NCBI GenBank assembly: GCA_026388095.1
Contig: JAPLKL010000069.1
Location: forward strand, 8,117 to 72,116
Direction: 5' to 3'
From: Elusimicrobiota bacterium
GTDB taxonomy: Bacteria > Elusimicrobiota > Elusimicrobia > UBA1565 > UBA9628
Length of the DNA stretch: 64,000 nucleotides
Shown: positions 1,848 to 21,051 of the stretch, piece by piece
Layout: the number at the start of each line of letters is the position of its first letter
How positions within the stretch are numbered: position 1 is the stretch's first letter
Notes under the pieces: model-generated
The model's input: only the letters and a program-made list of their open reading frames with translations
Told to the model about the DNA's origin: nothing
Database searches by the model: none
Program-made: the position numbers and the translations under genes

Positions 1848-3014
1848 TCAGTTGGGCCGGAAGAACTCGGCCGCCACGCGGTCCCACTGGGTGTCGCCAA
1901 GCTGCGCCAGCTCGCCGACATGGAGGGCCCCATCCTGATATTCGTCAGTGCCGCCCTGCGGAGCCAATTCTCCCATGAGCTTGCGGAACCGCTCCAGGTC
2001 GTCCTGGTACAAGGCCACGGCCGACTTGCCGATGCGGAGCTCGGGCACTTCGACGTCGAGGTTGTCGGCGTCGATGACGCAGATCCAGTTGCGCTGGTAG
2101 GGCGTCAGGTCGAGCGCCTCGCAGTCCTCGCTCAGAGCCGGGTTGACCTTGACCACCTGCCCGCTGACCGGGGCGTAGAACTGTGCCCGGCGGCCTTTCT
2201 GGCGGAGGCTGAACAGCGGCTGGCCGGCTTTGACCGTCATGCCCACGTTGGGGAACTCGATGGAGTCCACCGGGCCGATGAGCTTCTTGGCGAAATCGTC
2301 CAGGCCGACCTTCACGGAGCCGTCCTGAGCCATGCTGGCCCAGCAATGGCCGCGGGAGATCAGCACCCCGCCCGGGATGGAGAACTCGCCGGCGCGGGCG
2401 CGCTGAGGCTCGGGCAGGTGGGTGATGTGGACCTGCGGCTGCAGCTGCTTGGCCAAGCGGTCCTGCCTCCGGATCAGGACCTTCTTCACGAAAGCCCGCA
2501 GCTCGTCCTCGGTGAAGGGCTTCTGCACATAATCCAGCGCGCCGTGCTTCATGCACTCCACCGCGGACTCCACGGTGGCGTAGCCGGTGATGATGACGAC
2601 GTCGATGTCCGGGCGCATGTGCTTTACGGACTTGACGACCTCGACCCCGTCCAGCGCCGGCATGCGCAGGTCGGTGAAGACGAAATCGTAATGGTGGGTG
2701 CGGATGAGCCCCAGCGCCTCCTGGCCGGTCTCCACCGTGTCGACGCAGTAGCCGTCCAGCACCAGGATCTTGCGGAAGCTGTCCAGGATCACGGTCTCAT
2801 CGTCCACGCAGAGGATGCGCGCCGCTGGGTCGGCGACCTCGGCGCGCTTGAGGGTCTTGGCCTCCCTCTGAAAATCGAGCTTGAGGCTCACGGCCAGGGC
2901 CGCCTCGCGCTCGCGCCGGATGCGCTGGTCGCGCAGCCTCTGGGCGGCCGACCGCACCGCCAGGTCGGCGAGCACGAACAGGATGACGGAAAGGAACAGG
3001 AACACGATCACCAT
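1848..3014 (-). CDS. Response regulator: N-terminal TM helix, REC domain, C-terminal GcvH-like (glycine-cleavage H protein fold) domain
   Basis: REC motifs are present: the acid pocket ILCVDDE, the phospho-Asp in FVFTDLRMP, and KPF. The C-terminus reads HCWASM...VKVGLDDFAKKLIGPVDSIEFPNVGMTVKAGQPLFSL...FYAPVSGQVVKVNPAL..PYQRNW, which aligns with GcvH (HEW...VGITDHAQ...APVSGEIV..PYxxGW). An AAGGAG RBS lies 7 nt before the ATG. Confidence 0.8.
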   Translation of the reverse strand: MVIVFLFLSVILFVLADLAVRSAAQRLRDQRIRREREAALAVSLKLDFQREAKTLKRAEVADPAARILCVDDETVILDSFRKILVLDGYCVDTVETGQEALGLIRTHHYDFVFTDLRMPALDGVEVVKSVKHMRPDIDVVIITGYATVESAVECMKHGALDYVQKPFTEDELRAFVKKVLIRRQDRLAKQLQPQVHITHLPEPQRARAGEFSIPGGVLISRGHCWASMAQDGSVKVGLDDFAKKLIGPVDSIEFPNVGMTVKAGQPLFSLRQKGRRAQFYAPVSGQVVKVNPALSEDCEALDLTPYQRNWICVIDADNLDVEVPELRIGKSAVALYQDDLERFRKLMGELAPQGGTDEYQDGALHVGELAQLGDTQWDRVAAEFFRPN

Positions 3015-3042
3015 GATGGGTCTCCTTCGGCATCGGGTCTGG

Positions 3043-3810
3043 TCATAGTCGCTCCGGACTGCACGAGCTCAGGCTCTTGAGGTCGTACTCCAGGTCCGCG
3101 GGCAGGACGCGGTAGAGCCAGCCCGCGAAGTACGGGTCCTTCTCCACCGCCGCAGGGTCCGCGGCCAGACGCTCGTTGCGCTCCACGACCCTGCCGCTGG
3201 CCGGGCAGAGCAGGCCGTGGCGCGCGCCGCCCTCGGAGACGAACGCGGCGCAGGGGGCGCCCTGGATGACTTCGCCGCCGGCCGGCGCCAGCTCCACCGC
3301 GCTCACTCCCTCCAGGGTCTTCAAGAAAGCATCTCCCGCGCCTATCAGGACGCTGCCCTCCGGCTCGGTCTTGAGCCAGCTGATGGTGCCCAGGCGGAAA
3401 TATCCCGACGGGCACGGCGCCCAGCCCGTTTTTTGAAGCTTACTATATTTCAGTCCGCGCCGGACCACCGACGTCAGCTCGTCTTCGGTGAAAGGCTTGG
3501 GAAGGAAGTCGATGGCGCCCGCCGCCAGGGAGCGCACGGCGTTGTCCACCGTGGAATACCCCGTGACCATGACCACGGGGGTGCGCAGCCCCCGCCGCGC
3601 CGCTTCGGCGAGGAAGGCGAACCCGTCGAGGTCCGCCATCATGATGTCGCAGACGACGAGGCGGTAGGAGCGCTGCCGCAGGCGCTCCAGGCCCGCCGCC
3701 CCGCGGGCCGCGACGTCCACGGTCAGACCCTCGGCCGCGCAGATCTTGGCGACCGCCTGTCCGACCACGGGCTCGTCGTCGACGACCAGCACGTCGCGCT
3801 CCCGGCTCAT
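3043..3810 (-). CDS. Response regulator: REC domain plus GcvH-like domain lacking the lipoyl-lysine
   Basis: The start MSRERDVLVVDDEP was chosen inside the longer track ORF. Its ATG overlaps the histidine-kinase stop as ATGA. REC motifs are VVCDIMM and KPF. The C-terminal GcvH-like region reads CPASGRVVERNERL...PYFAGWLYRV with no Lys at the lipoylation position. Confidence 0.75.
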   Translation of the reverse strand: MSRERDVLVVDDEPVVGQAVAKICAAEGLTVDVAARGAAGLERLRQRSYRLVVCDIMMADLDGFAFLAEAARRGLRTPVVMVTGYSTVDNAVRSLAAGAIDFLPKPFTEDELTSVVRRGLKYSKLQKTGWAPCPSGYFRLGTISWLKTEPEGSVLIGAGDAFLKTLEGVSAVELAPAGGEVIQGAPCAAFVSEGGARHGLLCPASGRVVERNERLAADPAAVEKDPYFAGWLYRVLPADLEYDLKSLSSCSPERL

Positions 3811-5672
3811 GGCTTGACCGGGATGCGCAGCACGAAGGTGGTCCCGGCGCCGGGAGCGCTCTCCACGGCGATGGTCCCGTTGTGGTTGTCCATGATGCCC
3901 CAGACCACCGCCAGGCCCAGCCCGGTGCCCTTCTGCCCTTTGGTCGAATAGAAGGGCTCGAAGATCTTCTCCCGCACCTCCTGGGGCATGCCGCAGCCGT
4001 CGTCGCGGACCTTGAGCTCCACGAACTCCTTGCGGTCCATGCCGTCGACCTCCTCCCAGCGCTGCCAGCCGCAGCCCGGCCGCGTGCAGCCTTCCACGAG
4101 GCCCCGGGCCGGGACCTCGAAAACGTAGACCGCGGACCCGCACTCGGGGCAGACCTTCTTGTCGACGAGCAAAGAGACCGAGCACTCCGGGCACACGAAC
4201 CGGGCCCCTGGGGCTCCGGCGGCGGCGACGGCGTGATGGTGCCCGCCCATGCCGTACATCGGGTTGAGGTAGAGGAACCCCTCGGCCTTATCGGAACGCA
4301 CCCGGATGCGCACCGTGGGCCTGCCGTCGATGCGGACCTCCTCGTCCATGAGGCTGTGCCGCTTGGGGCAGACCGCCTTCTTGATCTGGGTGATGCCGAT
4401 GGGGGAGAGGCTGAGCGCGGAGGAGGAGACGGTGATGGTCCCGCCCTTCGGCCCGATGGCGTCCGCGGCGTTGACGAAGAGGTTGATGAAGACCTGCTGC
4501 ATCTGGTTGGCGTCCACGGTCACCTTGGGCATGTCCGGCGCCAGCGACAAGACGAGCCGGACGGCGTTGAGCGCGAGCTGGCTCTCGATGACCGTGGCGG
4601 CGCGCCCCACGATCTCGTTGATGTCGGCCTCCCCCTTCTTGGGGACCGACTGCCGCGCGAAATCCAGGAGGCTCTTGACGATCTCCCGGCTGCGGATGGT
4701 CTCGCGCACGATGACCTTAAGGTCCTCCTGCAGTTCCGGCTGGTCCTTGGTGCGCTTGAGCAGGAAGCTGCTGTAGGTGAGCACGCCGGTGAGCGGGTTG
4801 TTGATCTCGTGAGCGACGCCGGCCGCCAGGCGCCCCAGCGAGGCCAGCTTGTCGGACTGGAAGAGCTGCAGGCGCGCCTCGGAGAGCTTGCGGGTCATGT
4901 TGTTGAAGGACTGCGCCAGCAGGCCCAGCTCGTCGTCGCCGCGCTCCCGGATGGAGCATTCCAGGTCCCCGCCCGCCACGCGCCGGGTCGCCTCCACGAG
5001 CTCGCGGACCGGGGCGTCGACCCAGCGCCTGACCAGGAGCCCGACGATGAGACTCAGCGCCAGGATGGCGCCGACCGCGAAGACCAGGATGCCGAGCTGG
5101 CCGCGCCGGATGTCCCGGTCGACCGCGGCCAAAGACATGGAGACGTCGAGCACTCCCAGGACGACCTGCGCGCGGGGGTGGGCGTGGCAGGCCGCGGTCC
5201 AGCACGAGGGGGCGTTGTAGATGGGGTTGATGATGCCCAGCGTGCGCGCGCTGTCGGGGCGCAGCCGGAACACCCGGGTGCGCTCCTTCATGTCCAGGCG
5301 CTCGAGCGGCCGGTCCGCGGAATGGCAACGGTAGCAGCTCTCCGCCTTCTTGTCCACCATCTTGCCGATCTCGGCGCGGTCGGAGGAGTAGATGATCTCC
5401 CCGGCCTTGTTCATCACGCGGATGCGCTGGATGCTCTCCTGGCTCCCCAGCCTGCGGATGGTGTCGTAGATGCGGTCGCGCTGATTGAAGCGCATGTCGT
5501 ACTCGGTGCTGGACTTGACCGCCTCGCTGAGCTGGTTGGCGTGGCGCTCCACCTCGGCCAGCAGGCTGCTGCTGTGGGCGCGGCTGTTGAACTCGGCGAA
5601 TATGCCGATGGTCACCAGCGCCGTGGCGCAGACGGCCAGAGTCAGCTTGAGGCCGATCTTCTCCCGGATCAT
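3807..5672 (-). CDS. Sensor histidine kinase (TM, HAMP, HisKA, HATPase_c carrying a ~110-aa Cys-rich insert)
   Basis: Start MIREKIG at 5672 overlaps the cytochrome stop as ATGA. The HAMP-like linker is followed by the HisKA H-box LAAGVAHEINNPLT, then the N-box NLFVNAADA, a DDGCGMP G1-like box and a GTGLGLAVV G2 box. An insert between the N-box and G1 box contains CPKRH, CPEC, CPEC and CTRPGCGW. Confidence 0.8.
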   Translation of the reverse strand: MIREKIGLKLTLAVCATALVTIGIFAEFNSRAHSSSLLAEVERHANQLSEAVKSSTEYDMRFNQRDRIYDTIRRLGSQESIQRIRVMNKAGEIIYSSDRAEIGKMVDKKAESCYRCHSADRPLERLDMKERTRVFRLRPDSARTLGIINPIYNAPSCWTAACHAHPRAQVVLGVLDVSMSLAAVDRDIRRGQLGILVFAVGAILALSLIVGLLVRRWVDAPVRELVEATRRVAGGDLECSIRERGDDELGLLAQSFNNMTRKLSEARLQLFQSDKLASLGRLAAGVAHEINNPLTGVLTYSSFLLKRTKDQPELQEDLKVIVRETIRSREIVKSLLDFARQSVPKKGEADINEIVGRAATVIESQLALNAVRLVLSLAPDMPKVTVDANQMQQVFINLFVNAADAIGPKGGTITVSSSALSLSPIGITQIKKAVCPKRHSLMDEEVRIDGRPTVRIRVRSDKAEGFLYLNPMYGMGGHHHAVAAAGAPGARFVCPECSVSLLVDKKVCPECGSAVYVFEVPARGLVEGCTRPGCGWQRWEEVDGMDRKEFVELKVRDDGCGMPQEVREKIFEPFYSTKGQKGTGLGLAVVWGIMDNHNGTIAVESAPGAGTTFVLRIPVKP

Positions 5673-6430
5673 GGCTGGTCCTGGTGGCAATGAGAGCACT
5701 GGGCGTCGGCGTGGCAGGAGAAGCACGGCTTGTGCAGGGTCTCCATCGAGCGCTTCGGCTTCTTGGGCTGGGCCGCGGCTCCCGGCGGGCGCGGCTTGGG
5801 CTCGTGGCAGCCGGCGCAGGTCTGGTTCTGATGGCAGGCCGTGCACTCCAGGCCGAACTGCTTGACATGCGCTTCGTGCCGGAAGGTCACGAACCGGCCC
5901 TTCTGGGAGGAGGTCTCGTAGACGATGGGAGCCGGGAGCTTGGCTTGGGGGAAGCCCTTGGGCGCGCCGCCGGCTCCGGGGCCGGCCTTGCGGGCATGGC
6001 ATGAGCCGCAATCGGATTCGTGGCTCCACTGCAGGTGGCAATCGACGCATTGCCGGTGGCGGGCCCCCTTGAGGTCGGGCTTGGTCAGGTCCGTACGGCG
6101 GCGCGAGGACGAGTGGCATTCGCCGCACTTGAAGATGGGGCGCGACTGGTTGTAATGATGGCAACCGTAGCAGCCGTCGCCCATCTCCGCCAGCTTCGCG
6201 TGCGCCTTATGAGGGAAACGGACCGGCCCGTAGGTGTCGGAGAGCTCGCCCATCGTGATCGTGCGGGGAGCCTGCGAGAGGGGATGGCGCCCCCAGATCT
6301 TCTCGCGGGGGCAGCTGACCAGCGCCGGGCTCTCTCGGGTCGGCTTGTCGCTGGTGTGGCAGGTCCGGCAGTCGGCCGCGCCCCAGGCGCCCGTCAGCGC
6401 GGCCAGCCCCAGCGCCAGGAGCATCTTCAT
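5669..6430 (-). CDS. Multihaem c-type cytochrome (9 CxxCH motifs) with signal peptide
   Basis: Start MKMLLALGLAALTGAWGA is a signal peptide. Nine CxxCH haem-binding motifs are present: CRTCH, CYGCH, CGECH, CVDCH, CGSCH, CTACH, CAGCH, CFSCH and CSHCH. A GGA RBS sits at -8. Confidence 0.8.
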   Translation of the reverse strand: MKMLLALGLAALTGAWGAADCRTCHTSDKPTRESPALVSCPREKIWGRHPLSQAPRTITMGELSDTYGPVRFPHKAHAKLAEMGDGCYGCHHYNQSRPIFKCGECHSSSRRRTDLTKPDLKGARHRQCVDCHLQWSHESDCGSCHARKAGPGAGGAPKGFPQAKLPAPIVYETSSQKGRFVTFRHEAHVKQFGLECTACHQNQTCAGCHEPKPRPPGAAAQPKKPKRSMETLHKPCFSCHADAQCSHCHQDQP

Positions 6431-6434
6431 GGGT

Positions 6435-7670
6435 TCATCCGTGCACCGTGTACTTGGCCTTGGGCGAGAGGGTCCGGTCGGGCAGGCTGATGACCGGGAA
6501 GAGCAGCACCGCGGCGCGGTAGAGAAGGACGAGCAGGCTGATGAAGCCAACGGTCACGCAGACCTCGCCGAAAGCCGGGTGGTAGGGCCGCAGCGAATAC
6601 GGCGGCGTGTAGGCGATGAGGAAGTTGTCCACCCGGTTGACCGCCACCCCGGCCACGACCAGGGCCGAGGCCGTGAGGAGCAGGGCCGGGGACTTGAGGA
6701 CCGCGCGCGACATGAACATGCGCAAAGGGATGACCACGCCGAACAGGACCTCGACCATGAACATGACGCTGGCGGTATTGAATGTCGCCAGGTGGACGAA
6801 GGTCTCCCGGACGAACATGTCCCCGATCTTGAAGGCGAGGTAGACGCCCAAGAGCGGCGCGGTCATGCGGCCCAGTCCCGCCAGGACGGACATCTCGGGC
6901 TTGAGGCCGAAGGAGCGCGCCGCCAGGAGGGATTCCAGGATCACCATGGGGAAGCCCACCGAGACCGCGGAGAGCAGGAACAGCAGGGGCAGGATCGGGG
7001 TCTGCCAGAGGGGATGCATCTTGGGCCCGGCGATGACCATGAGCGTGCCCAAGGAGGACTGGTGCAAGGTGGAGAGCACGACGCCGGCGATGATGAAGAC
7101 GAACATGGTGCGCGCCAGGCCGCGGTCCAGGGCGGCGAGCAGGCGCTCCGCCAGGGGGTTGAGCCTGGCCAGAGGGCCCGGCAGAGCCACGCGCCCCAGG
7201 AAGCGCTCGACCGCCACGGGCAGGAACTCGATGTAGAGGACGTGGATGTAGATGACCACGCAGATGCCGACCTCGAAGAGGGCCGAGGTGCCGTTCCACA
7301 TGACCAGGGGATGCCAGATGTAGTAGGGACGCCCGATGTCGATGCAGACGCCCAAGGCCACGAAGGTGTAGCCCAGCAGCGCGGTGAGCAGGGCCGGCCG
7401 CACCACCGCGTGGTACTGCTCCCGGTGCATCACGTGGCCGAGCGCCGCCGTGGTGAAGCCTCCCGCGGCCAGGGCCACGCCCGCGGCCACGTCGATGCCG
7501 ATCCAGATGCCCCAGGGGTACTGGTTGCTCAGGTTCGTGACGGCTCCGATGCCGAAGAGCAAGCGGCCGGCCAGGAAGACCAGTCCGTTGAGGGCCAGAA
7601 GGATGAGCACTCCCACGCCGGGAGTCAGGAAGCGCCGGGGCAAGGGCGTGGGCCTCATGAAGCGGTCCAT
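6435..7670 (-). CDS. NrfD/PsrC-family polytopic membrane subunit (quinone-interacting)
   Basis: Start MDRFMRPTP is preceded by a GGAGG RBS and lies 2 nt after the FeS gene stop. The protein is ~411 aa with 8-10 predicted TM helices and resembles NrfD/HmcC/ActC/PsrC. Confidence 0.8.
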   Translation of the reverse strand: MDRFMRPTPLPRRFLTPGVGVLILLALNGLVFLAGRLLFGIGAVTNLSNQYPWGIWIGIDVAAGVALAAGGFTTAALGHVMHREQYHAVVRPALLTALLGYTFVALGVCIDIGRPYYIWHPLVMWNGTSALFEVGICVVIYIHVLYIEFLPVAVERFLGRVALPGPLARLNPLAERLLAALDRGLARTMFVFIIAGVVLSTLHQSSLGTLMVIAGPKMHPLWQTPILPLLFLLSAVSVGFPMVILESLLAARSFGLKPEMSVLAGLGRMTAPLLGVYLAFKIGDMFVRETFVHLATFNTASVMFMVEVLFGVVIPLRMFMSRAVLKSPALLLTASALVVAGVAVNRVDNFLIAYTPPYSLRPYHPAFGEVCVTVGFISLLVLLYRAAVLLFPVISLPDRTLSPKAKYTVHG

Positions 7671-7672
7671 GC

Positions 7673-8566
7673 TCAGGCCTCCTCCCCGGACTCCGGGCTG
7701 TGCTTGGCGATCCACATGACCGCCCCCAGCAGGGCGTAGAGCGAGACCGGCGGGATGAAGTAGGCGAATATGCCGTGCTGGATGCTCTCCGAGACCCCGG
7801 GCGCCGGGCTGCGTCCCAGACGGGGGAACTGGAGGGCGGCGAAGTCGACTCCGGAGAGGTAGAGCCAGTCGGTGCCGCCCACCTCGAACTCCCCGAAGAC
7901 GTGGCTCACGTAGCGCTCCGGGAAGCGCCGGACCCGGTCTTTGGCGATGCGCACCAGCTCCTCGCGCGGGCCGAAGGTCATGACCTCCATCGGGCAGATC
8001 TCCACGCAGGCCGGGATCCTCCCGGCCTTGCGCCGCTCGAAGCAGAAGTCGCACTTCATGATCCGGGGCTGGAGCGCCTTGTGATATTCGAAGGCCGGGA
8101 TCTGGAAGGGGCAGGCGATCATGCAGTAGCGGCAGCCGATGCACTTGTCCGTGTCCCAGACCACCGCGCCGTTCTCAGCCTTGGTGAGCGCGCCTACGAT
8201 GCAGGCCGAGACGCAGGCCGGCTGGGCGCAGTGCATGCACTGGACCTTCACGGTGACGGGGAGTCCGGGCTTGCGGGGGTTCTCGTAGCGGTTGACCACG
8301 GTCAGGGCCGTGTCGTCGGGGCGGCGCATCCGGGCGAAGACCGAGCGGTCCTCATAGGCTTCCTGAGGAGGGGTGGCCAGGCCGTGGGCCTGCTTGCAGG
8401 CGTATTCGCAGTTGCGGCAGCCGATGCAGACGGTGGTGTCCACGAGCACGCCGCTGCGCTCGGGCGCCGGCGACCGGCCGCCCGAGGCCTGGGCGGCGGA
8501 GGGAGTCAGCCCGGCGCCCAGGACCGCGGCGCCCGCCAGGAACTCCCGCCGGGTGAGGTTCGCCAC
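7673..8566 (-). CDS. 4Fe-4S ferredoxin-type iron-sulfur subunit with Tat signal (NrfC/HmcB/PsrB-like)
   Basis: A GTG start gives MANLTRREFLAGAAVLGA, which carries the twin-arginine RREFL motif. Four CxxCxxCxxxCP-type clusters are present: CIGCRNCEYAC, CMHCAQPACVSAC, CIGCRYCMIACP and CDFC...CVEICP. Confidence 0.75.
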   Translation of the reverse strand: MANLTRREFLAGAAVLGAGLTPSAAQASGGRSPAPERSGVLVDTTVCIGCRNCEYACKQAHGLATPPQEAYEDRSVFARMRRPDDTALTVVNRYENPRKPGLPVTVKVQCMHCAQPACVSACIVGALTKAENGAVVWDTDKCIGCRYCMIACPFQIPAFEYHKALQPRIMKCDFCFERRKAGRIPACVEICPMEVMTFGPREELVRIAKDRVRRFPERYVSHVFGEFEVGGTDWLYLSGVDFAALQFPRLGRSPAPGVSESIQHGIFAYFIPPVSLYALLGAVMWIAKHSPESGEEA

Positions 8567-8568
8567 GC

Positions 8569-9591
8569 CTATTTCCCTGCTCCCGGGTAGCGCGGCGGCA
8601 CGCGCAGGCCGCGCGCCGCGAGCATGGAGGCCAGGCGGCCGGGGTCGTCCGTGATGATGCCGTCCACGCCCCAGGACAGGAGCTTGGCGACGAGGCCGGC
8701 ATCGAATGTGGTCCCGAGCTTCTCGGGCCAGCTCCACACGACGACCTTGAGGCCCAGGCGGTGGGCCTCGGCGAGCGCCGCCTGGGTCAGCTCGGCGTCC
8801 TCGGGCTCCCAGGCGAAGCCGCCCAGGGCCTTGACCATCCTGGGGATGGAGCCGCCGTAGTCCTTGACGAGCGCGCCCCCGGTCCAGAGTCCCGCGGCCT
8901 TGGGGTCCTCGCCGTAGAAGCTGTCCGGCCCGCCGGGCTCGTTGTCCCGAGAGGTCAGGTAGGCGGTCTTGACGTTCCGGTCCAGCCGCCGCAGCTCGGA
9001 GAGGCAGCGCCAATCGAAGGCCTGGATCTCGGCGCGGCCGATGATGCCTTCCTCCTTGAGGATCCGGTGGAGGGCCTGGGCGAAAGCCTTGGGGTCCGGG
9101 CTGCGCTCCGGCTGGGCCGGGTCGGTCTTCATCTCGATCTGGAAGCCCATCTTATGCCGGGCGGCCTTCTCGACATAGCGCGCGACTTCGCGCAAAGTGG
9201 GCATGTGCGTGCCGTCCACCGGGACTTGGTCAGGGAAGAACTTGGCGTAAGCGCTCTCCGGGTTCAAGCGGCCCACGTCGAAGCTCTGGAGCTCGCGGAG
9301 CGTGAGGTCCTTGGCCGCGGGGCCCTTGGTGATGTAGCGCCCGGCGCTGTCGCGGGCGAGGTTCGGGCTGACCAGGAGGTCGTGGGAGACCAGCACTTCG
9401 CCGTCCTTGGTGAGCACGACGTCCATGTCCACCCAGTCCGCGCCGATGCTCAGAGCGGCCCGATAGGCGGGCAGGGTGTTCTCCGGGGCGAAGGAGCGGC
9501 CGCCGCGGTGGGCGTAGACCTGCACGGAGCCGGCGGGCGCGGCGGGCGCGGCCAGGACGAACGCCGAGAGCAGGGTCGTGAGTTGGGTCAT
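8569..9591 (-). CDS. Glycerophosphodiester phosphodiesterase (GDPD family) with signal peptide
   Basis: Motifs YAHRGG, PENTLPA and DxD...E/H match GDPD. The N-terminus is a hydrophobic signal peptide. A GAGG RBS is present. Confidence 0.85.
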   Translation of the reverse strand: MTQLTTLLSAFVLAAPAAPAGSVQVYAHRGGRSFAPENTLPAYRAALSIGADWVDMDVVLTKDGEVLVSHDLLVSPNLARDSAGRYITKGPAAKDLTLRELQSFDVGRLNPESAYAKFFPDQVPVDGTHMPTLREVARYVEKAARHKMGFQIEMKTDPAQPERSPDPKAFAQALHRILKEEGIIGRAEIQAFDWRCLSELRRLDRNVKTAYLTSRDNEPGGPDSFYGEDPKAAGLWTGGALVKDYGGSIPRMVKALGGFAWEPEDAELTQAALAEAHRLGLKVVVWSWPEKLGTTFDAGLVAKLLSWGVDGIITDDPGRLASMLAARGLRVPPRYPGAGK

Positions 9592-12711: not shown

Positions 12712-13700
12712 GCCTTCATCCTCCGCAGGAAGTCCTTGATCCCGCCCAAAGTGAGCCCCACGCGGTAGAGGAAGACCAGCCCCATGCCCGTCACCAGGAC
12801 GAACGTGCACATGTGCAGGAACACCGCGTAAGCCAAAGCCTCGGGGGGCGCGGCGCCCAGCTTGACCACGATCGATTTCACCAAAGACTCGAAGGTCCCG
12901 ATCCCGCCCGGCGCCGCGGGCAAAGCCGCGCCCGCTCCGGCCCAGGAGAGCACGAGGATGGCCCGCGGATAATCGATCCAGCCCTGCAGCCCCAGAGCGA
13001 AGGCCCCCAGCCGGAACACCAGCGCATCGACCGACCAAAGCGCCAAGCTCAGGGCCGCCACGGGGATGAGAGCCCGCGGCTGGCGCAGCACCGCCGCGCC
13101 CAAGGCCAGGTGCGTCATGATCTCGTGGACCTTGCGCCACGAGCGCAGGCGGCGCTCCACGAACCCCCCCGGCTCCAGGCTGCGCTCCGCCAAGGTGAGG
13201 AAGAGCAGGCCGCCGACCACCGCCGCCAGCAGCGCCGCGGCGACTTGACGCAGGTGGGCATCGACGATGCCGGGCTGCAAGGCCGCGGCGGTGACGAAAA
13301 GGGTCAGCAGCGCCGCCACGTCCAAGACGCGCTCGACCACCACGCTCGCCAGGACGGTGGCCAGAGGCACACGCAGCCTCTCGGCCGCCAGCACCGCGCG
13401 CAGCAGCTCGCCCAGACGGGCGAAGAGCAGATTGTTGACCGCCAAGCCGATGGTGGAAAGCCGGAACAGCTCGCCCAACGGCGCCTTCACGGCCCCCGAG
13501 AGCAGGATGCGCCAGCGCAGAGCGCGCAGCCCGATGTCCGCGAACATGATGATGAAGATGATCCCGGGCAGCCAGCGCCAGCGCGCGCCGGCCAGAGCCC
13601 GGCCCAGGTCCGCGTACTGCACGTTGCGCAGGGCCAAAGCCAGGAAGAGCCCCGTAAATCCCAAGGCCACCGCCACGGACAGGATCTTGCGGCGGCTCAC
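12708..13700 (-). CDS. Flippase-like membrane protein (lysyl-PG synthase TM region / UPF0104 family)
   Basis: A GTG start at 13700 overlaps the YfhO stop as GTGA. The protein is 330 aa and polytopic (..WRWLPGIIFIIMFADIGLRALRW..). The upstream part of the track ORF cannot be real because it lies on the same strand as the YfhO-like gene and is occupied by it. Confidence 0.6.
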   Translation of the reverse strand: MSRRKILSVAVALGFTGLFLALALRNVQYADLGRALAGARWRWLPGIIFIIMFADIGLRALRWRILLSGAVKAPLGELFRLSTIGLAVNNLLFARLGELLRAVLAAERLRVPLATVLASVVVERVLDVAALLTLFVTAAALQPGIVDAHLRQVAAALLAAVVGGLLFLTLAERSLEPGGFVERRLRSWRKVHEIMTHLALGAAVLRQPRALIPVAALSLALWSVDALVFRLGAFALGLQGWIDYPRAILVLSWAGAGAALPAAPGGIGTFESLVKSIVVKLGAAPPEALAYAVFLHMCTFVLVTGMGLVFLYRVGLTLGGIKDFLRRMKA

Positions 13701-15544
13701 AGCGCCCCCGCCCGCAGCAGGGCTCCGCAGGAAGCCAACCAGGCGGACCAAGCCAGGAGCCCGATCAGGACGAAAATGGTCCAATGGACCGGCCGAAAAT
13801 CCAGGCGCAGGTCCACGTCCCGGCCCGCCGCACCCGGCGGCATGCGCACGGCCTGGAAGAAACCCCATGGCTCCAAGACCGCGGGAGCCCCGTCCAGCCA
13901 GGCGCGCCAGCCCGGATAGGCCGGGACCGTCGCCACCAGACGCTGCGCACCGGGCGGCGCCCGGCCCGCGATCCGCCAGCGCTCCGGCCTCGGAGACCCG
14001 ATGTCCAATGACGCCGCCTCCGGCCCCCCCGCGGAGGTGAAGAAAGCCAGCGGCAGAGCGCCGGCATTGGGCACAAGCTCGCCCTCGGCCGTCAGCCGAT
14101 AGGCGACCCCGGCCAGACGCATCAGCGGCGTGTCGGCGCGGGACAGATAGGAGCGGCTGGCGTCCGCGGCGGGCCTGCCCTCGCTGGCCGCGGCGAAGGC
14201 GGGGAAGCCCCCCAGGTAGAACGCGTCGTAGCCGTTGACGTTCATGGCCCGGTAGAGCATGGTCTTGTCCGCGCTGGCCAAGGCCGGGTCGCTGAGGATG
14301 CGCAAAGGCCGTCCGCCCGCGGCCCGGGCCAAAGCGGAGTTGACGGAGAGATAGCGGGCGGAGCTCTCCGACTTGACGAAGGGGCTTGCCCACGAGAGCA
14401 GCTGCACGAAGGCCGCGGCCAGAATGAAGGCCTTGAGCTCCGGCTTGAGCGAGCTTTCCCAGCGGCGCGCTCCGGCGCCGGCGGCCATGACCAGCCCCCA
14501 CAGGGACAAGAGGAGGTATCGCGACGGCGTCCTCAGCAGGCCGGCGGGCCCCGCGCTCGCGAGCCGGTAGAGCGGATTGTTCCAGCCCAGGGCCAGGAAC
14601 ACACCCAGCCCGATCAGCACCGCGGCGCGCCAGGCGCGCGCGCGCCACAGCCCGGCCGCGGCGGCCAAAAGCCCGGCCCAGCCGATGAAGACCCCGGAGG
14701 ACTCGAAGAACACCGACGGAACGTCTCCCCAGGTCCCGTCCAGGGGATTGCCCAGGGCGTTGGGCCAGAGCCAGGTGAGCAGGTCCCGCGGCGAGACCGA
14801 ATAGGCGGCGAGGAAGGATTGCGGCCAGTTCCGGCGCACGGAGAGGCTCACGAACCGCCAGGTGTCCGGCCATTGCATGATCGCCAGGACCGCCGCGCCC
14901 AAGCCCGCGCAGGCGAGCCGGCCCATGAGCCGGCCGCGCTCCTTGCGGCACAACGCCCAGGCCGCCATGCCTGCGGCGTTGGCGAGCAGGAACTGCGGAT
15001 GCCCGGAAAGGAACTGCAGGGCCCAGGCCGCGGCCAGCAAGCCCGGCCGGCAGGACAGGAATGCCAGCCAGCACCAAGGCACCCAGGCCAAGGCGGCGAG
15101 CAAGGTCGGTATGCCTTCGGTCACGCGGTAGAGGACGAAGGGCGAGAAGCAGTAGAGGCCGGCCAAGAAGAGCGCCGCTGCGGAGCTTAGGCCTTCGCGC
15201 CGCGCCAGCAGCAGCAGGCCCAGGCCGCCCCAGAGGATGTGCAGGGCGAAATCCCAGGACAAAGCCAAGGCCAGAGGCAGTATCCGGGAGAGCACGCTGA
15301 GCGGATAGAAAAGGCCGGCCTGGGAATTCGCCGAGAGCGGGCCGCCGCAGAAGATGTAGGGGTTCCAGAACGGCAGACGGCCCTCTTGCAGGGCGCCGCT
15401 GACCAAGGCGCGCAGGGGATGATGATAGGCGTAAAGGTCGCCGAACCCGGCCAGGGCCGCCGTCGGCGAGAAGACCGCCGGAGCGAGCAGCGCCAGGACC
15501 AGGCCGGAAAAAAGCGCGAATGCGCCGGAGTCTTTGGCCCTCAT
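13697..15544 (-). CDS. YfhO-family polytopic membrane protein (GT-C-like glycosyltransferase)
   Basis: 615 aa, more than 10 TM helices, N-terminal WNPYIFCGGP motif typical of YfhO/DUF2079-like glycan transferases. Confidence 0.75.
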   Translation of the reverse strand: MRAKDSGAFALFSGLVLALLAPAVFSPTAALAGFGDLYAYHHPLRALVSGALQEGRLPFWNPYIFCGGPLSANSQAGLFYPLSVLSRILPLALALSWDFALHILWGGLGLLLLARREGLSSAAALFLAGLYCFSPFVLYRVTEGIPTLLAALAWVPWCWLAFLSCRPGLLAAAWALQFLSGHPQFLLANAAGMAAWALCRKERGRLMGRLACAGLGAAVLAIMQWPDTWRFVSLSVRRNWPQSFLAAYSVSPRDLLTWLWPNALGNPLDGTWGDVPSVFFESSGVFIGWAGLLAAAAGLWRARAWRAAVLIGLGVFLALGWNNPLYRLASAGPAGLLRTPSRYLLLSLWGLVMAAGAGARRWESSLKPELKAFILAAAFVQLLSWASPFVKSESSARYLSVNSALARAAGGRPLRILSDPALASADKTMLYRAMNVNGYDAFYLGGFPAFAAASEGRPAADASRSYLSRADTPLMRLAGVAYRLTAEGELVPNAGALPLAFFTSAGGPEAASLDIGSPRPERWRIAGRAPPGAQRLVATVPAYPGWRAWLDGAPAVLEPWGFFQAVRMPPGAAGRDVDLRLDFRPVHWTIFVLIGLLAWSAWLASCGALLRAGAL

Positions 15545-15549
15545 AGCGG

Positions 15550-17502
15550 TCAGCGGGAGGCGAAGCCTGCCCGCGCTCGCCGAAGGGCGAGATTATACCA
15601 ATATAGCCCGAACGCCGACAGGAATACCGCGGTCAGGAGCAGGCCCGCGCGCCAGGAGGCCGGATCGTAGAAGAACCGCAGGCGCCAAGGCCCTTGCGGC
15701 ACTCGGACCTTCTGGAACGCGCCCCAGGCGGGCAGGACCTCCACGAGGCGCGCGGCCCCGCCAGCCTCCAGCATCGTTTTCCAGCCGGGATAGCGGGGCT
15801 CGGCCACGAAGGCCCAGCCGGCCTGGGTCCCGGCTACCTCGAATCGGTCGTCCCGCGGCCACGACTCGGGCAGGGGTTCGGCCGCGGCCGGCAGCGGCGC
15901 GCCGGGAAGCTCCGCGGACAAAGCCTCGCCGGCGCGCTCATCGAGGGCCCAGGCCAGACCGGTCTTGCCGGCCGCGCGATAGGCGTGCCAGAGGACCTCT
16001 CCGGCCGGCTGCAGCAGGGGAGTCGCGGGCACCGGGTCGCGCGTGAGCAAGATGCCGATCCCGGCTCCGGGCAGCAGACGCGCGGCGGCCGCGGCCGAGG
16101 GCTGGCGGTAAAGCAGGTCCATGAGGTCGTATGTGGTCCTGGGCACCAGCGGCTCCCCGAAGTTGCCCGCCGCGCGCAGCCGGTACGGATCGTTGGTGAG
16201 GCCGTAGAGGCGCCATTTCCAATCCCTGACGCCGAAGCCGCTGTGGCTTTCCAGCGCCTGGGGCGAGAGGAGATAGCGCCGGCCGCCGCTGTGTTCCTGC
16301 AGCCAAGGCGGCAAGGGCCCGGCGTCGGTGAAGAGCCCGCGCGGAGCCAGGGGGGCTTGGCCCACGCCGTAGCAGAGGAGCTCGCCGGCCAAGAGCAGGA
16401 CCAGCGGCGCCCGCCAGGAAGGCCGCAGCCTCTGCGCGCCCGCCGCCGCGAGCAGAGCCACGATGGGCCAACCCAGATAGGCCAGGTTGCCGGGGTAGCG
16501 GACGAAGCGCAGAGGAGCGAGATGCTGCCAGGCCGCGCGGGAGACCGCCGTCGCATCGCCCAGGATCAGGAACAACACCGTGCCGAGCAGCGCCGCCAAG
16601 CCCGCGGCCCGCCTGCGGCCCAGGCTCCAGAGGCCCCAGGCCGCCAGGAGGACGCCGGTGAAGCCCGCGTAGCTGGATCTGGTCCAATTGACCGCCGGAT
16701 TGAAGCCGGGGCTGAGCAGGGGGCTGACCCAAAGGGTCAGGTCGCGCCCGGAGTAGCCGAAAAGGAGAGTCTCCTCGATCCCCATGCCGCCGCTGCGCCG
16801 GGAGAGTCCGAGGAGTTCCGCTCCGGGCAGGAGCTGGCAGGCGGCCAGGCCCGCGGCCAAGGCCCCGGCCGCCAGCCAGCCTCGGCCCCAGGACCATGCC
16901 GGCTTGGCCAGGACCGCGCTCACCGCCCAGGCCAGCAGCGAGCCGCCGACCAAGAAGGGTGGATAGCCGGCCAGGAAAGCGGCGGCCAAGGTCAAAGCCA
17001 GCAGGGCCGGCCTGCGGAAGAAGAGCAGCAGCGCCGGCAGCAGGCTCAGAACGGCCAGATGATTGAGGAAGGGCATGCGGCTCAGAAGCCCGCCGCCCAG
17101 CACGAGGACCGCGGCGCCGGCCAGGGCGGCCGATGAGCGCAGGCGCAGGGAGCGCAGCCAGAGCCACATCAGCCAGCCGGCCAGCCAGTAGTGGAGGCCA
17201 TGGAAGCAGGCCGTGGCGGTGGCGAAGCCGAAGATCCGGAATGGGACCGTGCCGGGATAGAAGACGGCCCTCTGCATGTTGGCCGCCATGGGCATGCCGA
17301 AGTACAGGAAGGGGTCCCACGCCGGCAGCTGTCCCGCCTGCAGGAGCTGCGTCGAGGATTGCTGCCAGGGCAGGTGCAGATAGGTCAGGTCGCCCCAGAA
17401 CGGCATGAGCCCCCGCGACCAAGCCGGCGCGAAAAGCCCCAGGACCAGCAGAGCCAGCAGGGCGGCGGCCCACGCCTCCAACCTGGGCCTAGCCCGGTCC
17501 AT
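15550..17502 (-). CDS. YfhO-family polytopic membrane protein, paralogue of the previous gene
   Basis: 650 aa with a WDPFLYFGMP motif and the same architecture as its neighbour. Confidence 0.75.
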   Translation of the reverse strand: MDRARPRLEAWAAALLALLVLGLFAPAWSRGLMPFWGDLTYLHLPWQQSSTQLLQAGQLPAWDPFLYFGMPMAANMQRAVFYPGTVPFRIFGFATATACFHGLHYWLAGWLMWLWLRSLRLRSSAALAGAAVLVLGGGLLSRMPFLNHLAVLSLLPALLLFFRRPALLALTLAAAFLAGYPPFLVGGSLLAWAVSAVLAKPAWSWGRGWLAAGALAAGLAACQLLPGAELLGLSRRSGGMGIEETLLFGYSGRDLTLWVSPLLSPGFNPAVNWTRSSYAGFTGVLLAAWGLWSLGRRRAAGLAALLGTVLFLILGDATAVSRAAWQHLAPLRFVRYPGNLAYLGWPIVALLAAAGAQRLRPSWRAPLVLLLAGELLCYGVGQAPLAPRGLFTDAGPLPPWLQEHSGGRRYLLSPQALESHSGFGVRDWKWRLYGLTNDPYRLRAAGNFGEPLVPRTTYDLMDLLYRQPSAAAAARLLPGAGIGILLTRDPVPATPLLQPAGEVLWHAYRAAGKTGLAWALDERAGEALSAELPGAPLPAAAEPLPESWPRDDRFEVAGTQAGWAFVAEPRYPGWKTMLEAGGAARLVEVLPAWGAFQKVRVPQGPWRLRFFYDPASWRAGLLLTAVFLSAFGLYWYNLALRRARAGFASR

Positions 17503-18943
17503 TTCCCCTCAGGCTCGGGCACGAGGCCGCGCCGCGCGCATGGGCGGAGCGGGCCCGGTCCTCGCGGCCCAATCGGCGGTAGGTCGTCTCCAGCCAAGAC
17601 CAGGTGGAGGCCCGGAAGGGATTCTGCGCCGCGGCGCGCTCGAAGTCGGCGGCCGCGGCCTGGAGGCGCGACCCATCGGCGCCCGAGAGCGACGCCTCGA
17701 TGAACCCGGAGAGCCGCGCGGTCTCCGGGTGGTCGCAACGACGGGCGGAAGCCTCCAGGAGCGCCAGCGCCTCGGTCTTGGAGCCGCCGGAGTTCACCAA
17801 GGCCTGGGCCCGGGCCCGGCCGATGTCGGCCTGCCACCTCTGCCAGACCGACTGCCCGGCGCAGAGGCCCGCGGCCAAGGCCAGCGCGCAAGCCGGCAGC
17901 CGCCAACGAGCCGGGACCGCGAGCCCTGCCCCGCTCTCGGGCAGACATGAGCCGACGCAGCAGCAGAACAGCCAGAGCACCGCCGGGATGGAGAGGGCAT
18001 AGTCCCACAAGGACTGGACCAGCAAGGCCAGGGCGGCGACGCGCTTGGCCGGGGGGCCGCGCCGCAGGATCAGCCAGAGCCCGGCCAGCCAGGCCGCCAG
18101 GAAGGGGAATCCCTCCTCGGCGGCGGTCTCCAGGAAATGCTGGTGCGCGTAGAGGCTGGCCAGCGGCCGGCTGGGGTCGACGTAGGCCGGCAGGACATAG
18201 GCGAAGGTGCCGGGGCCGGAACCCAGCCAGGGCCTGGCCAAGCCCATGCGCGCCGCGGCCGTCCACCAGACCCAGCGGTCGCGCACGCCCGCGGTCCCGA
18301 GCTTGGCTGCGGCCAGGGCCAGGCAGAACAGGACCGCGGCCGCTACGGTCCAGACCCTCCCGGGCCGGCGCACCAGCAGCAGCGCCGCGGCCAGCCCCAG
18401 CCACGCGCCGACGCTGTGCGCCCAGGTCAGGCACAGCAGGAGCAGAGCCGTCAGGATCCAATCCTTCTGCGTCACGGCCAAGGGCAGGAAGAGCAGTATG
18501 GCGCCGGCGAAGACGTTCACATTGAGCAGGCTGGCCGGGGGACGGTCCAGGTGCAGGCCGAAACGCTGGTAGAGGGCGAGCAGGACCAGGGCCCAAGCGA
18601 CCGCCCGCATCCCAAGGTCCACGAGCCGGCGCTGGTCTCCAGGCATGACCGAGTAGGCCAGCAGCACGCCCAAGGCCGCCAGCCACACGTGCCAGGCGGG
18701 GACCGCGTAGGCCGGCAGAGGCCCGGCGTATGCGCAAAGACCGCCCCAGACCGCCAGGCCCAAGGTCCAAGCCAGCAGAGGCCGGGGGGGCAGAGGCAGG
18801 CGGCCGCGGAGCAGCCGGCCGCAGACCCACAAGACCGCGACGGCGAGGACGGCCAGCAGGAGCAAGGACTGCGCCCAGAGGTCCCAGGCGCCGCTCAGCA
18901 GCGGTCCCAGGACGGCCAGCAGTCCCGGGAAGAGGGCCAGCAC
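17489..18943 (-). CDS. O-antigen ligase/polymerase family (Wzy_C) membrane protein with C-terminal TPR-like region
   Basis: The transmembrane region carries the conserved YAHQHFLETAAEEG loop (H...E), which is Wzy_C/RfaL/PglL-like. The C-terminal ~100 aa is soluble and TPR-like (GRARAQALV...ASTWSWLETTYRRLG). Confidence 0.75.
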   Translation of the reverse strand: MLALFPGLLAVLGPLLSGAWDLWAQSLLLLAVLAVAVLWVCGRLLRGRLPLPPRPLLAWTLGLAVWGGLCAYAGPLPAYAVPAWHVWLAALGVLLAYSVMPGDQRRLVDLGMRAVAWALVLLALYQRFGLHLDRPPASLLNVNVFAGAILLFLPLAVTQKDWILTALLLLCLTWAHSVGAWLGLAAALLLVRRPGRVWTVAAAVLFCLALAAAKLGTAGVRDRWVWWTAAARMGLARPWLGSGPGTFAYVLPAYVDPSRPLASLYAHQHFLETAAEEGFPFLAAWLAGLWLILRRGPPAKRVAALALLVQSLWDYALSIPAVLWLFCCCVGSCLPESGAGLAVPARWRLPACALALAAGLCAGQSVWQRWQADIGRARAQALVNSGGSKTEALALLEASARRCDHPETARLSGFIEASLSGADGSRLQAAAADFERAAAQNPFRASTWSWLETTYRRLGREDRARSAHARGAASCPSLRGNGPG

Positions 18944-18950: not shown

Positions 18951-21032
18951 TCAGTCCGCCAGGATCTTCGGCGTCACGAAGATCAGCAGCTCCGTGCGCG
19001 TGCGCGCCTTGTGCTTGCTGCGGAACAGCCAGCCCAGGATGGGGATGTCCCCGAGGAGCGGGATCTTGCTGATCCGGTCCTCGAGGCGGTCGCTGATGAG
19101 GCCGCCGATGACGATGGTCTCGCCGTCGCGGATGAGCACCGTGGTCTGGGCCTGGCGCGAGTCGATGCCGGGCGCCCCACCCGTGGCGGTCGGGGCCGTG
19201 GCCGAGGGCTGGCTGACCGTCGGGTTGACCAGGAGCGTGATGCGGCCGTCGGCGTTGATGGTCGGCGTCACCGTGAGCTGGATGCCCACGGAGACGTAGG
19301 TGACCTGCGAGGTGACGGCGCCGCCCGCGGTCGAGGCGATGCTGGAGGTCACGTAGGGATACTGGGTCGTGACATTGATGTTGGCGGGCTGGTTGTTGAG
19401 GGTCGCGATCTTCGGGTCGGAGAGGACCTTGATCTTGCCCTGGCTGGCGGCCGCGGTCAAGGTCATGTTGAGGATCTGGTTGTTGGTGATGCGCCCCAAA
19501 GTCAAGGCGCCCAGCACGTTGGACGCGGGGAGGTTGACCCCCGTACCGCCGCCGACTCCCAACGGGCTGTTGGCGCCGGCGATCTTGGTGGAGTCCATTC
19601 CGGCGACGCTGTTGAGGTCGAACGGAGTGGACTTCCCGGTCGCGACGCCGAGGGGAGCTCCGATGGTGGAGACCCCGTTCTTGCCGAACGCCTTGCCCTG
19701 GTCGGCGGAGAAATAGTTCCATTGGATGCCGTAGTCCAGGCTGTTGCTCAAAGTGACTTCGATGAGCTTGGCCTCGATGAGGACCTGCTTGGGCCGCACA
19801 TCGAGCTGGGCGATGAGCCGCTCCTCGGTGGCCATCCCGTCCGGGGACTCGGTCAGGATCAGGGAGTTGGTCTTGAGGTCGGCCGTGGCCGAGCCCTGGC
19901 GGCCTTCGGCCGAGCGCACGGCGGTGAGCGCCGGCAGGATCTCGGAGGCCTTGGTGTAGTTGAGCGGGATGATCTTGGTGAGGGTGGTGGCCGTGCTGCG
20001 CTCCTTGGCCATCTGCGCCGGGGTCAGCACGCGCACGATGCTGTCGCCCACCTGCATGGTGACCAGGCCGCTCATGGACAGGATGGTCTGCACCGCCTCG
20101 TTGAAGGGCACGTCGCTGAGGTGCAGGGTCAGGGGCAGTACGGCCGCCACGTCGCTGCCGAAGATGATATTGACCCGGGCTTTGGCCGCGAGGAGCTTGA
20201 AGACGTCCCGGATATCCGTGGCGTCGAAGTCCAAGGTCACCAGATCCCGGGGCAGGCGGCTCATGATGTCGGAACGCCTCACGCGCTTGGCCAACCCCGA
20301 GGCGTGGGCCACGGACTCCTCCTCTTCGGGGGCGGCTTTCGCTTCAGACTCCCCCTCCGAGTCCTTCTCAGCCCGGTCCTTCACCAGGACCTTCGGCTTG
20401 GCCGCGGCCGCGGGGACGACCGCCGCGGCCTCCACGGCGACCGGAGCCGCCGCAGCCACCGCCGCCGGCGCCTTCGGGTGCTGAGGCTTGCGCGGGGCCG
20501 CTGCCTGGGGCGCCGCCGCGGCGGCCGCCTTGGGCGAGACCTCGGCTTGGGCGGCCGGAGTCGCCGGCGCCGGCGGCTGCGCCGCGGCGGATTCCGCCAC
20601 CAAAGTGACGACCAGAGCGTGATCCGACTGGGTGAGGCGGTAGCCGGCCATCTCGTTGAGGTCCATGACGACGCGCGCGATCATCTTCGGGGAGCGTTGG
20701 TACTGGCCCACGCGCACGCGCTTGAGGAACCGCCCCTTGCCGGCGATCTCCGTGGCGCCCACCTGGTCCTCGGCATCGAGGAGCTCCACGACCAGGCGCG
20801 GGGGCTTGGCGATGAGGATGCCGTTGTACTGCGCCGGGGCGCTGAGCTTGATGGTCACCGTGTCGTAGCCGACGCTGAGGCCCTCTACGGTGGCCGACGC
20901 TTCCGCCGCGAAGCTCCGGACCAGCAGTCCCTCGGGGCACGCCAGGGCGAGGGCCAAGGCCGCGGCCAAAGAGCGCCTCGCGACTGTCTGCACGCAGGAC
21001 CGCCTCATAATGGAGGGCCGCTTCGTAGTCAT
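18951..21032 (-). CDS. pilQ: Type IV pilus secretin PilQ
   Basis: Signal peptide, AMIN-like N-terminal domain, Ala/Pro-rich linker, secretin N domains, and a C-terminal secretin domain (..VLIRDGETIVIGGLI...IPLLGDIPILGWLF..). Confidence 0.9.
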   Translation of the reverse strand: MTTKRPSIMRRSCVQTVARRSLAAALALALACPEGLLVRSFAAEASATVEGLSVGYDTVTIKLSAPAQYNGILIAKPPRLVVELLDAEDQVGATEIAGKGRFLKRVRVGQYQRSPKMIARVVMDLNEMAGYRLTQSDHALVVTLVAESAAAQPPAPATPAAQAEVSPKAAAAAAPQAAAPRKPQHPKAPAAVAAAAPVAVEAAAVVPAAAAKPKVLVKDRAEKDSEGESEAKAAPEEEESVAHASGLAKRVRRSDIMSRLPRDLVTLDFDATDIRDVFKLLAAKARVNIIFGSDVAAVLPLTLHLSDVPFNEAVQTILSMSGLVTMQVGDSIVRVLTPAQMAKERSTATTLTKIIPLNYTKASEILPALTAVRSAEGRQGSATADLKTNSLILTESPDGMATEERLIAQLDVRPKQVLIEAKLIEVTLSNSLDYGIQWNYFSADQGKAFGKNGVSTIGAPLGVATGKSTPFDLNSVAGMDSTKIAGANSPLGVGGGTGVNLPASNVLGALTLGRITNNQILNMTLTAAASQGKIKVLSDPKIATLNNQPANINVTTQYPYVTSSIASTAGGAVTSQVTYVSVGIQLTVTPTINADGRITLLVNPTVSQPSATAPTATGGAPGIDSRQAQTTVLIRDGETIVIGGLISDRLEDRISKIPLLGDIPILGWLFRSKHKARTRTELLIFVTPKILAD

Positions 21033-21051
21033 TGCATTCTCCCGCTCGCCG

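Follow-up and report, generated by a model that had tools for sequence, protein, structure and literature searches.

Paired response regulators with GcvH-fold output domains in a portable cassette of NrfD-type, cytochrome and sensor kinase genes

Receiver (REC) domains are, to our knowledge, nearly always joined to DNA-binding or enzymatic outputs. The subject of this study is a pair of tandem response regulator genes, RR1 and RR2, found in 64,000 nucleotides of DNA from an Elusimicrobiota bacterium (assembly GCA_026388095.1, contig JAPLKL010000069.1, positions 8,117 to 72,116 of the forward strand; this whole stretch is hereafter called the window). Both products are receivers whose sole other domain is a genuine fold of the H protein of the glycine cleavage system (GcvH), without any DNA-binding or enzymatic domain. 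Lipoate-binding proteins of GcvH-like type are known partners of Hdr-like redox systems, an example being LbpA from the sHdr pathway. RR1 and RR2 close a six-gene cassette on the minus strand (8566..1848), which also encodes an iron-sulphur (FeS) protein, an NrfD-family membrane protein, a multihaem cytochrome and a sensor histidine kinase (HK).

Two described systems resemble the remainder of this cassette. In Desulfovibrio vulgaris two regulator genes, rrf1 and rrf2, lie downstream of the hmc operon, which encodes the Hmc complex (HmcABCDEF), and so a response regulator gene follows in both systems (10.1101/2023.11.02.564894; PMC13344952). Homologues of Rrf1 have been likened in the literature to a single-domain regulator. 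A preprint from the Palmer laboratory presents a three-gene module consisting of a tail-anchored FeS protein, a HybB-like quinol oxidase and a c-type cytochrome, to which it assigned no function and for which it found no conserved flanking genes (10.1101/2023.11.02.564894). Full-text literature searches found no paper describing REC-GcvH regulators, GcvH-like proteins with NrfD, or rrf1 with glycine cleavage. Automated database annotation of these proteins already reads 'CheY-like chemotaxis protein/glycine cleavage system H lipoate-binding protein', and the REC-GcvH architecture is therefore already visible in databases. We describe a real and strongly conserved receiver pair with a GcvH-fold, probably non-lipoylated output in a portable redox-sensing cassette, and propose a plausible mechanism for its action.

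Receivers closed by a GcvH-like domain

RR1 (1848..3014, minus strand) encodes a membrane-anchored response regulator of 388 aa, comprising a transmembrane (TM) helix, a receiver, a GcvH-like domain and a helical tail. RR2 (3043..3810, minus strand) encodes a soluble regulator of 255 aa with a receiver at aa 7-116 (D55), a GcvH-like domain at aa 144-247 and no tail. Both proteins pass the profile thresholds of PF00072 (Response_reg, 30.2 bits) and PF01597 (GCV_H, 22.2 bits). Response_reg matches aa 67-176 of RR1 with 101 bits and aa 7-116 of RR2 with 93 bits; GCV_H matches aa 222-330 of RR1 with 68.4 bits and aa 144-247 of RR2 with 54.9 bits, well above the cut-off, and both domains have the H-protein fold. 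A preliminary description, made from the letters and open reading frames (ORFs) alone, had proposed that a GcvH-like domain closes both regulators, and the profile search bears this out; we found no biotinyl/lipoyl-like regulator class with a DNA-binding partner behind the domain. The conserved blocks listed in that description hold in part, RR2 having ISW and not HxW.

Both receivers are NtrC-family-like and retain the acidic pair, the phospho-acceptor Asp and the conserved Thr and Lys. In RR1 (receiver at 2487..2816, minus strand; phospho-acceptor D115), residues D71, D72, D115, T143 and K165 are invariant across 65 homologues; in RR2, D12, D55, T87 and K105 do not vary among 94 sequences, and D11 and T83 hardly do. 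Neither protein has a DNA-binding or enzymatic output and the presumed output is therefore a phosphorylation-dependent contact.

The two proteins differ at their ends. RR1 begins with a hydrophobic segment, MVIVFLFLSVILFVLADLAV, for which the model shows a helix (aa 2-42) and which the RR1 family conserves; the TM anchor itself covers aa 1-21 (2952..3014, minus strand) and includes the conserved D17, with M1, D17 and R21 invariant or nearly so. RR2 has no N-terminal hydrophobic segment, and the earlier assignment of an anchor to RR1 alone is thus upheld. The GcvH-like domain of RR1 (aa 222-330; 2025..2351, minus strand) is followed by a C-terminal tail (aa 331-388; 1851..2024, minus strand) with the motif QDG...G.L...D..W......FF, in which helices are modelled at aa 330-350 and 368-385.

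Whether the domain could carry a lipoyl group depends on the tip of a hairpin. The C-terminal part of RR1 aligns without gaps to structures of E. coli GcvH (E ~1e-16), placing K273 opposite the valine immediately before the lipoyl lysine; G274 takes the lipoyl position itself (K273-G274 at 2193-2198). The lysine that had been noted near the lipoylation position of RR1 is therefore near it, but one residue too early; that RR2 lacks such a lysine proved correct, its tip reading S-A-D-G-L-x-H. Among 118 RR1-family sequences, the true lipoyl position is occupied by histidine in 40, asparagine in 31, lysine in 18 and other residues in the rest; K273 is kept in 96 and a lysine is found at neither tip position in 21. 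What the family does conserve is a basic tip, F-x-x-R-Q-K-x-R-R-x-Q-F, in which F268 and R275 are invariant. The GcvH equivalog model TIGR00527 is not reached by the C-terminus of either protein (RR1 67.5 and RR2 45.7 bits against a cut-off of 115.85). Searched against Pfam, neither regulator matches Biotin_lipoyl (PF00364) up to E = 1, and precomputed matches to that family are faint and confined to a few homologues. The genes gcvT and gcvP are absent from the cassette and from 59 related loci, and a partial scan of the window genes showed no lipoate ligase, gcvT or gcvP. Because the lipoyl lysine is not conserved, RR2 has no lysine at its tip and both scores fall below the TIGR00527 cut-off, lipoylation is unlikely, on sequence grounds, to be a property of the RR1/RR2 family.

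The cassette and its receiver-less relatives

The six genes form one self-contained module in the order FeS protein, NrfD protein, cytochrome, kinase, RR2, RR1. The first (7673..8566, minus strand) encodes a 4Fe-4S protein, NrfC/HybA/HmcB-like, Tat-exported and C-tail-anchored (Pfam Fer4_11 and TAT_signal), and the second (6435..7670, minus strand) an NrfD-family integral membrane subunit, HybB/HmcC-like (Pfam NrfD, 77 bits). The third (5669..6430, minus strand) specifies a periplasmic multihaem cytochrome c of class III / c7-like type, which has a signal peptide and whose translation contains nine CxxCH motifs; it matches Cytochrom_CIII in Pfam (49 bits) and, in part, the C-terminal part of HmcA. 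The sensor histidine kinase follows (3807..5672, minus strand). The junctions of cytochrome with kinase and of kinase with RR2 are ATGA start/stop overlaps, and a Shine-Dalgarno-like gaaggag precedes the RR1 ATG. The ORF list and Pfam thus substantiate the co-operonic kinase, cytochrome, NrfC-like and NrfD-like genes of the preliminary description, and show no DNA-binding regulator inside the cassette. Upstream, ORF 8569-9591 (minus strand) ends with a stop 3 nt before the NrfC start and may be co-transcribed; its product has an N-terminal hydrophobic stretch and looks glycerophosphodiester phosphodiesterase-like by eye only, and the gene is not conserved beside the cassette elsewhere.

The cassette is portable. 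Proteins identical to those of the window are on record for an Elusimicrobia metagenome-assembled genome (MAG). A word-filtered protein search scored 3990 relatives of RR1 at E <= 1e-5, of which the best 120 are 68-89% identical and belong to Elusimicrobiota, Gemmatimonadota and Ignavibacteriales; RR2 relatives lie on the same contigs. A locus scan with one genome per species gave 80 loci, all from MAGs, adding Bacteroidota, Chlorobiota, Verrucomicrobiota and several gammaproteobacterial orders. The loci span at least five phyla, including Elusimicrobiota, Gemmatimonadota, Ignavibacteriota/Bacteroidota, Verrucomicrobiota and Gammaproteobacteria. For 59 of them the upstream view is complete: 47 show the full order NrfC>NrfD>Cyt>HK>RR2>RR1, and six, all gammaproteobacterial, show RR1'>small multihaem cytochrome>NrfC>NrfD>HK>RR2>RR1 (checked in L056). 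RR2 is missing in one; five show only HK-RR2-RR1 upstream, two of these with NrfCD nearby, and NrfCD is present in 56 in all. Flanking genes are unrelated between phyla, and no DNA-binding gene is conserved in or beside the cassette across them. Searches of plasmids with tblastn returned only generic receiver matches. Two of the loci, L057 and L070, come from Verrucomicrobiota, and L019 carries two tandem RR1 copies.

The kinase consists of a TM segment, a periplasmic domain, a second TM segment, HAMP, HisKA and a HATPase_c domain with an insert (Pfam). Its periplasmic part (~aa 30-195) matches no Pfam family except for a weak CHASE8 match, and contains one CxxCH (CYRCH) and one CxxxxCH (CWTAACH); both motifs are present in all 74 kinases of RR1-type loci. 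The two motifs point to a c-type sensor domain that would bind two haems. The insert, of ~130 aa, lies inside HATPase_c (~aa 430-560) and has two CxxC pairs and weak zinc-ribbon matches. It occurs in 62 of the 74 kinases of RR1-type loci against none of 28 kinases from loci of the receiver-less family described below, and hence co-varies with the REC-GcvH regulators.

When relatives of the C-terminal 193 aa of RR1 were sought among 1.84 billion representative proteins, 4113 were found. Many are of ~230 aa and have an N-terminal TM helix, a GcvH-like domain and the same tail, with no receiver; we call these the REC-less family and found no paper on such TM-GcvH-tail proteins. Their anchor, MVAIFVVLTI..F...D, is that of RR1 and is the best-conserved segment of the family. 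Such conservation speaks for a specific contact within the membrane and against a passive tether. RR1 has all three of the family's features, namely the anchor 'MVAIF..L....F...D', the tip (R/K)Q(G/K)xR and the tail 'DGG..G.L...D..W..F...F', the tip of the REC-less family itself being Q-G-x-R. Because anchor, domain and tail are shared and hhalign joins the RR1 C-terminus to the family with E 2e-52 over 181 columns, RR1 is a member of this family in which a receiver has been inserted after the anchor. RR2 matches the family in the GcvH-like core only; its domain belongs to the same clade, being closer to the REC-less proteins (E 3e-25) and to a Cys-rich sister group (E 4e-26) than to E. coli GcvH (E 2.5e-17).

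The neighbourhood of the REC-less genes was sampled by a metagenome scan in which the REC-less family alone served as query (a 7-sequence subset, a 38-sequence alignment being too diverse), and the sample is therefore not biased by its neighbours. Among 43 REC-less loci of at least 6 kb, the gene lies directly upstream of NrfC and NrfD paralogues in ~37. In most loci an HK2-type kinase and a sigma-54 activator of the NtrC type are found as well, and 24 of 28 kinases with a full-length ORF contain both CxxCH and CxxxxCH. Separate gene calls with Pfam labels agree on this neighbourhood. The GcvH-like genes remain with NrfCD where the kinase and NtrC genes sit on the opposite strand, and a sigma-54-type TGGCAC-N5-TTGCA stands just upstream of the first GcvH-like gene in nine loci. 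In Ignavibacteriota, a parent-type cluster with an NtrC-type regulator often adjoins the six-gene cassette.

A second or third GcvH-like gene is usual in REC-less loci and has either a Cys-rich N-terminus or a different TM anchor. The Cys-rich sister group, found at L046 13138-13953 and in ~30 metagenome loci (for example, L089 5346-6194), has the four-cysteine N-terminal motif C-x-W-x11-13-C-x5-C-x2-C-P-x-D. No Pfam or NCBIfam model covers this motif, which could be a metal or Fe-S site. The second anchor type (ATKGIEYL...) matches the NCBIfam model of HmcD, a small membrane subunit of Hmc, in seven of seven cases, with E 8e-7 to 0.05, below the cut-off. HmcD-anchored GcvH-like proteins (P0479, P0489, P0491, P0494, P0496, P0499 and P0501) also have a precomputed match to Pfam PF28260. 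The idea that this subgroup retains the lipoyl lysine was rejected, its tip residue being K, R or T and shifted by +1. In a third architecture, a periplasmic domain, a TM segment, the GcvH-like domain and the tail are followed by a Tat-signal NrfC gene. One further protein from the search of representatives, P0252, is a giant fusion of 1391 aa in which three GCV_H domains are joined to FAD_binding_4/FAD-oxidase_C, a 4Fe-4S domain and two CCG domains (GlcD-like and HdrD-like), which hints at another redox role for GcvH-like domains.

Mode of action and other features of the window

A mechanism can be proposed that accommodates these features. Judged by family membership, the FeS protein, the NrfD subunit and the nine-CxxCH cytochrome would together make up a small unit that connects electron carriers of the periplasm with the quinone pool. 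The kinase, which probably carries two c-type haems, would read the redox state of this FeS/NrfD/cytochrome unit, perhaps by exchanging electrons with it, or that of the periplasm. It would then phosphorylate the receivers of RR1 and RR2, a transfer suggested by gene adjacency and ATGA translational coupling, and the output would be a non-lipoylated GcvH-like module. The ancestral unit appears to have been an operon that combined GcvH-like proteins with NrfC and NrfD, its transcription being controlled by a kinase with two haem-binding motifs and an NtrC-type activator. The GcvH-like modules would be cytoplasmic-face partners or regulatory subunits of the NrfCD-type complex, docking by way of the TM helix and the basic hairpin tip, both of them conserved. 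Relative to the REC-less systems, the window variant has no NtrC-type activator, has receivers on both GcvH-like proteins and has added a multihaem cytochrome; its kinase has gained the CxxC insert and kept CxxCH and CxxxxCH. Control would have shifted from transcription of the GcvH-like subunits to their direct phosphorylation, and the kinase could then adjust, at the post-translational level, how active the membrane complex is or how it assembles.

That the GcvH-like modules are non-lipoylated partner subunits of an NrfCD-type complex, under direct receiver phosphorylation and not transcriptional control, is the interpretation we tentatively favour; homology and synteny make it quite possible, if short of probable. 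In its most specific form, a two-component system would bypass gene expression altogether: by phosphorylating the GcvH-fold subunits of a quinone-interacting membrane complex of NrfD type, a haem-based kinase would directly gate the flow of electrons or protons. This direct-gating form is more doubtful. Several observations weigh against a partnership with NrfCD. The link of the modules to NrfCD is one of gene neighbourhood, we know of no cytoplasmic GcvH-like partner for NrfD-family subunits, and the RR1 anchor itself gives no HmcD match. The closest relative of the window locus (L006, an Elusimicrobia MAG whose RR1 is 89% identical) is without RR2, the kinase being followed directly by RR1. 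Three RR1-type loci (L019, L057 and L070) have HK-RR2-RR1 without NrfCD within 6-9 kb on either side, while among the REC-less loci L106 and L135 have GcvH-like genes with kinase and NtrC and no NrfCD, and in L108 two GcvH-like genes stand by themselves. Accordingly, the association of the GcvH-like proteins with the kinase is no looser than that with NrfCD.

Loci L019, L057, L070, L106 and L135 lend substance to another explanation, in which the target of the GcvH-like modules is the signalling pathway and not NrfCD. They would bind the kinase (for example at its CxxC insert or DHp/CA) and serve as co-sensors, feedback adaptors or phosphate sinks; the real output would then come from a different regulator, encoded elsewhere in the genome. 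The co-variation of the insert with the REC-GcvH regulators is in keeping with this, as is the frequent presence of a parent-type cluster with NtrC beside the cassette in Ignavibacteriota. Yet the GcvH-like genes stay in the NrfCD operon when kinase and NtrC lie on the opposite strand, the periplasmic-domain variant is likewise followed by NrfC, HmcD-like anchors point to an Hmc-type membrane complex and the window cassette supplies no DNA-binding regulator, so that we consider a kinase target rather unlikely. Less likely than this are two further explanations. Transcription could be controlled indirectly, were the phosphorylated GcvH-like domain to bind a DNA-binding protein or sigma-54 activator encoded elsewhere; the NtrC-family-like receivers and the NtrC-type activator of the ancestral system would suit such an arrangement, and the preliminary description had named a DNA-binding partner among its grounds for refutation, but a membrane anchor on RR1 fits poorly with a transcription co-factor, and the unrelated flanks, with no DNA-binding gene conserved across phyla, make it improbable.

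The remaining explanation was advanced in the preliminary description: the domains of RR1 and RR2 would be lipoyl or acyl swinging arms, modified at the RR1 tip lysine and reporting or shuttling a redox or acyl state. The GcvH fold is real, LbpA sets a redox precedent, and K273 lies within a predicted two-residue turn between strands 266-272 and 275-280 of the RR1 model besides being widely kept. Shifting the lysine by one residue, however, abolishes lipoylation of lipoyl domains, and K273 is displaced by just that distance. With the lysine misplaced and not conserved, replaced by Q-G-x-R in the REC-less tip, shifted in the HmcD-anchored subgroup and missing from RR2, with equivalog scores far too low, no PF00364 match and no lipoylation or glycine cleavage genes seen in the partial scan, we abandon the swinging arm as very improbable. 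The redox role suggested along with it survives in part: the redox gene context is real, but the evidence favours a protein-protein module tied to an NrfCD-type complex over a cofactor carrier.

A dedicated GcvH-fold receiver output, conserved at 57-89% identity across several phyla within a compact and portable cassette, is a new entry among response-regulator outputs. It also draws attention to thousands of proteins misleadingly named 'glycine cleavage system protein H', which are membrane-anchored, have no lipoyl lysine and travel with NrfC/NrfD modules, two-haem-motif kinases and sigma-54 regulators. Were the direct-gating form correct, non-lipoylated GcvH-like proteins would be a new kind of regulatory subunit in respiratory complexes, and the GcvH fold a new response-regulator output. 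Should the modules be subunits or regulators of NrfD-type complexes, they would provide a handle on the control of these quinone-linked complexes and an example of regulation that passes from the transcription of subunits to their direct phosphorylation.

Other parts of the window contain features in their own right. At 47537-51063 (minus strand) a single long ORF has NifH-like and nitrogenase component-1-type domains, with a radical SAM gene just upstream; it resembles the nitrogenase paralogue cluster reported for groundwater Elusimicrobia. A type IV pilus pilM/N/O/secretin cluster occupies 18954-23816 (minus strand), and a CDP-alcohol phosphatidyltransferase gene adjoins one for myo-inositol-1-phosphate synthase at 28342-31198 (plus strand). 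An angiotensin-converting-enzyme-like M2 peptidase is encoded at 55011-56885 (plus strand). Two long ORFs at 13700-17508 (minus strand), of 631 and 652 aa and with high GC content at third codon positions (GC3), have no Pfam match at E <= 1e-5.

Comparison with known systems

Against GcvH proper (PF01597, TIGR00527), the domains of RR1 and RR2 are distinguished by the want of a conserved lipoyl lysine and by sub-equivalog scores. They are fused to receivers and, in RR1, to a TM anchor and an extra helical tail, and their genes accompany NrfCD and a kinase, not gcvT and gcvP. The REC-less family is much closer. RR1 shares with it the anchor, the GcvH-like domain with a basic tip and the tail, and neighbours of the same kinds surround both; the differences lie in the receiver placed after the RR1 anchor, in the receiver and missing tail of RR2, in the CxxC insert of the kinase, and in a cassette that has a multihaem cytochrome and no NtrC-type regulator.

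The FeS/NrfD module is Hmc-like or Hyb-like in kind but a member of neither, because all curated cut-offs are missed and the HmcE, HmcF and hydrogenase genes are absent. Among NCBIfam models the FeS protein scores 318 bits with HmcB (cut-off 420) and 245 bits with HybA (cut-off 263), and the NrfD protein 334 bits with the HybB type (cut-off 450) and 264 bits with HmcC (cut-off 550). HmcB, HmcC and the C-terminal part of HmcA of the D. vulgaris complex are nevertheless the best NCBIfam relatives of the window genes, and some GcvH-like relatives bear an HmcD-like anchor. Apart from scores below every Hmc cut-off, the cassette differs in having nine CxxCH motifs against the 16 haems of HmcA, and neither a cytochrome b HmcE-like gene nor an HdrD-like HmcF (CCG-domain) gene. 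Rrf1 (DVU0530) is known to us by its description as a response regulator only, and its relation to RR2, being unverified, plays no part in our argument. With Hydrogenase-2, the likeness to HybA and HybB stays below both cut-offs, and hydrogenase genes are missing from the cassette and its relatives alike.

The three-gene module of the Palmer laboratory agrees with the three upstream genes of the window cassette in make-up and predicted topology; the difference is that here they have a rigid genomic link with a kinase and a pair of REC-GcvH regulators. Those regulators, finally, resemble CheY, RssB and the single-domain regulators in having no DNA-binding or enzymatic output and in presumably acting through phosphorylation-dependent contact. 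They depart from them in their dedicated GcvH-fold output, in the membrane anchoring of one copy and in their presumed target, a respiratory membrane complex.

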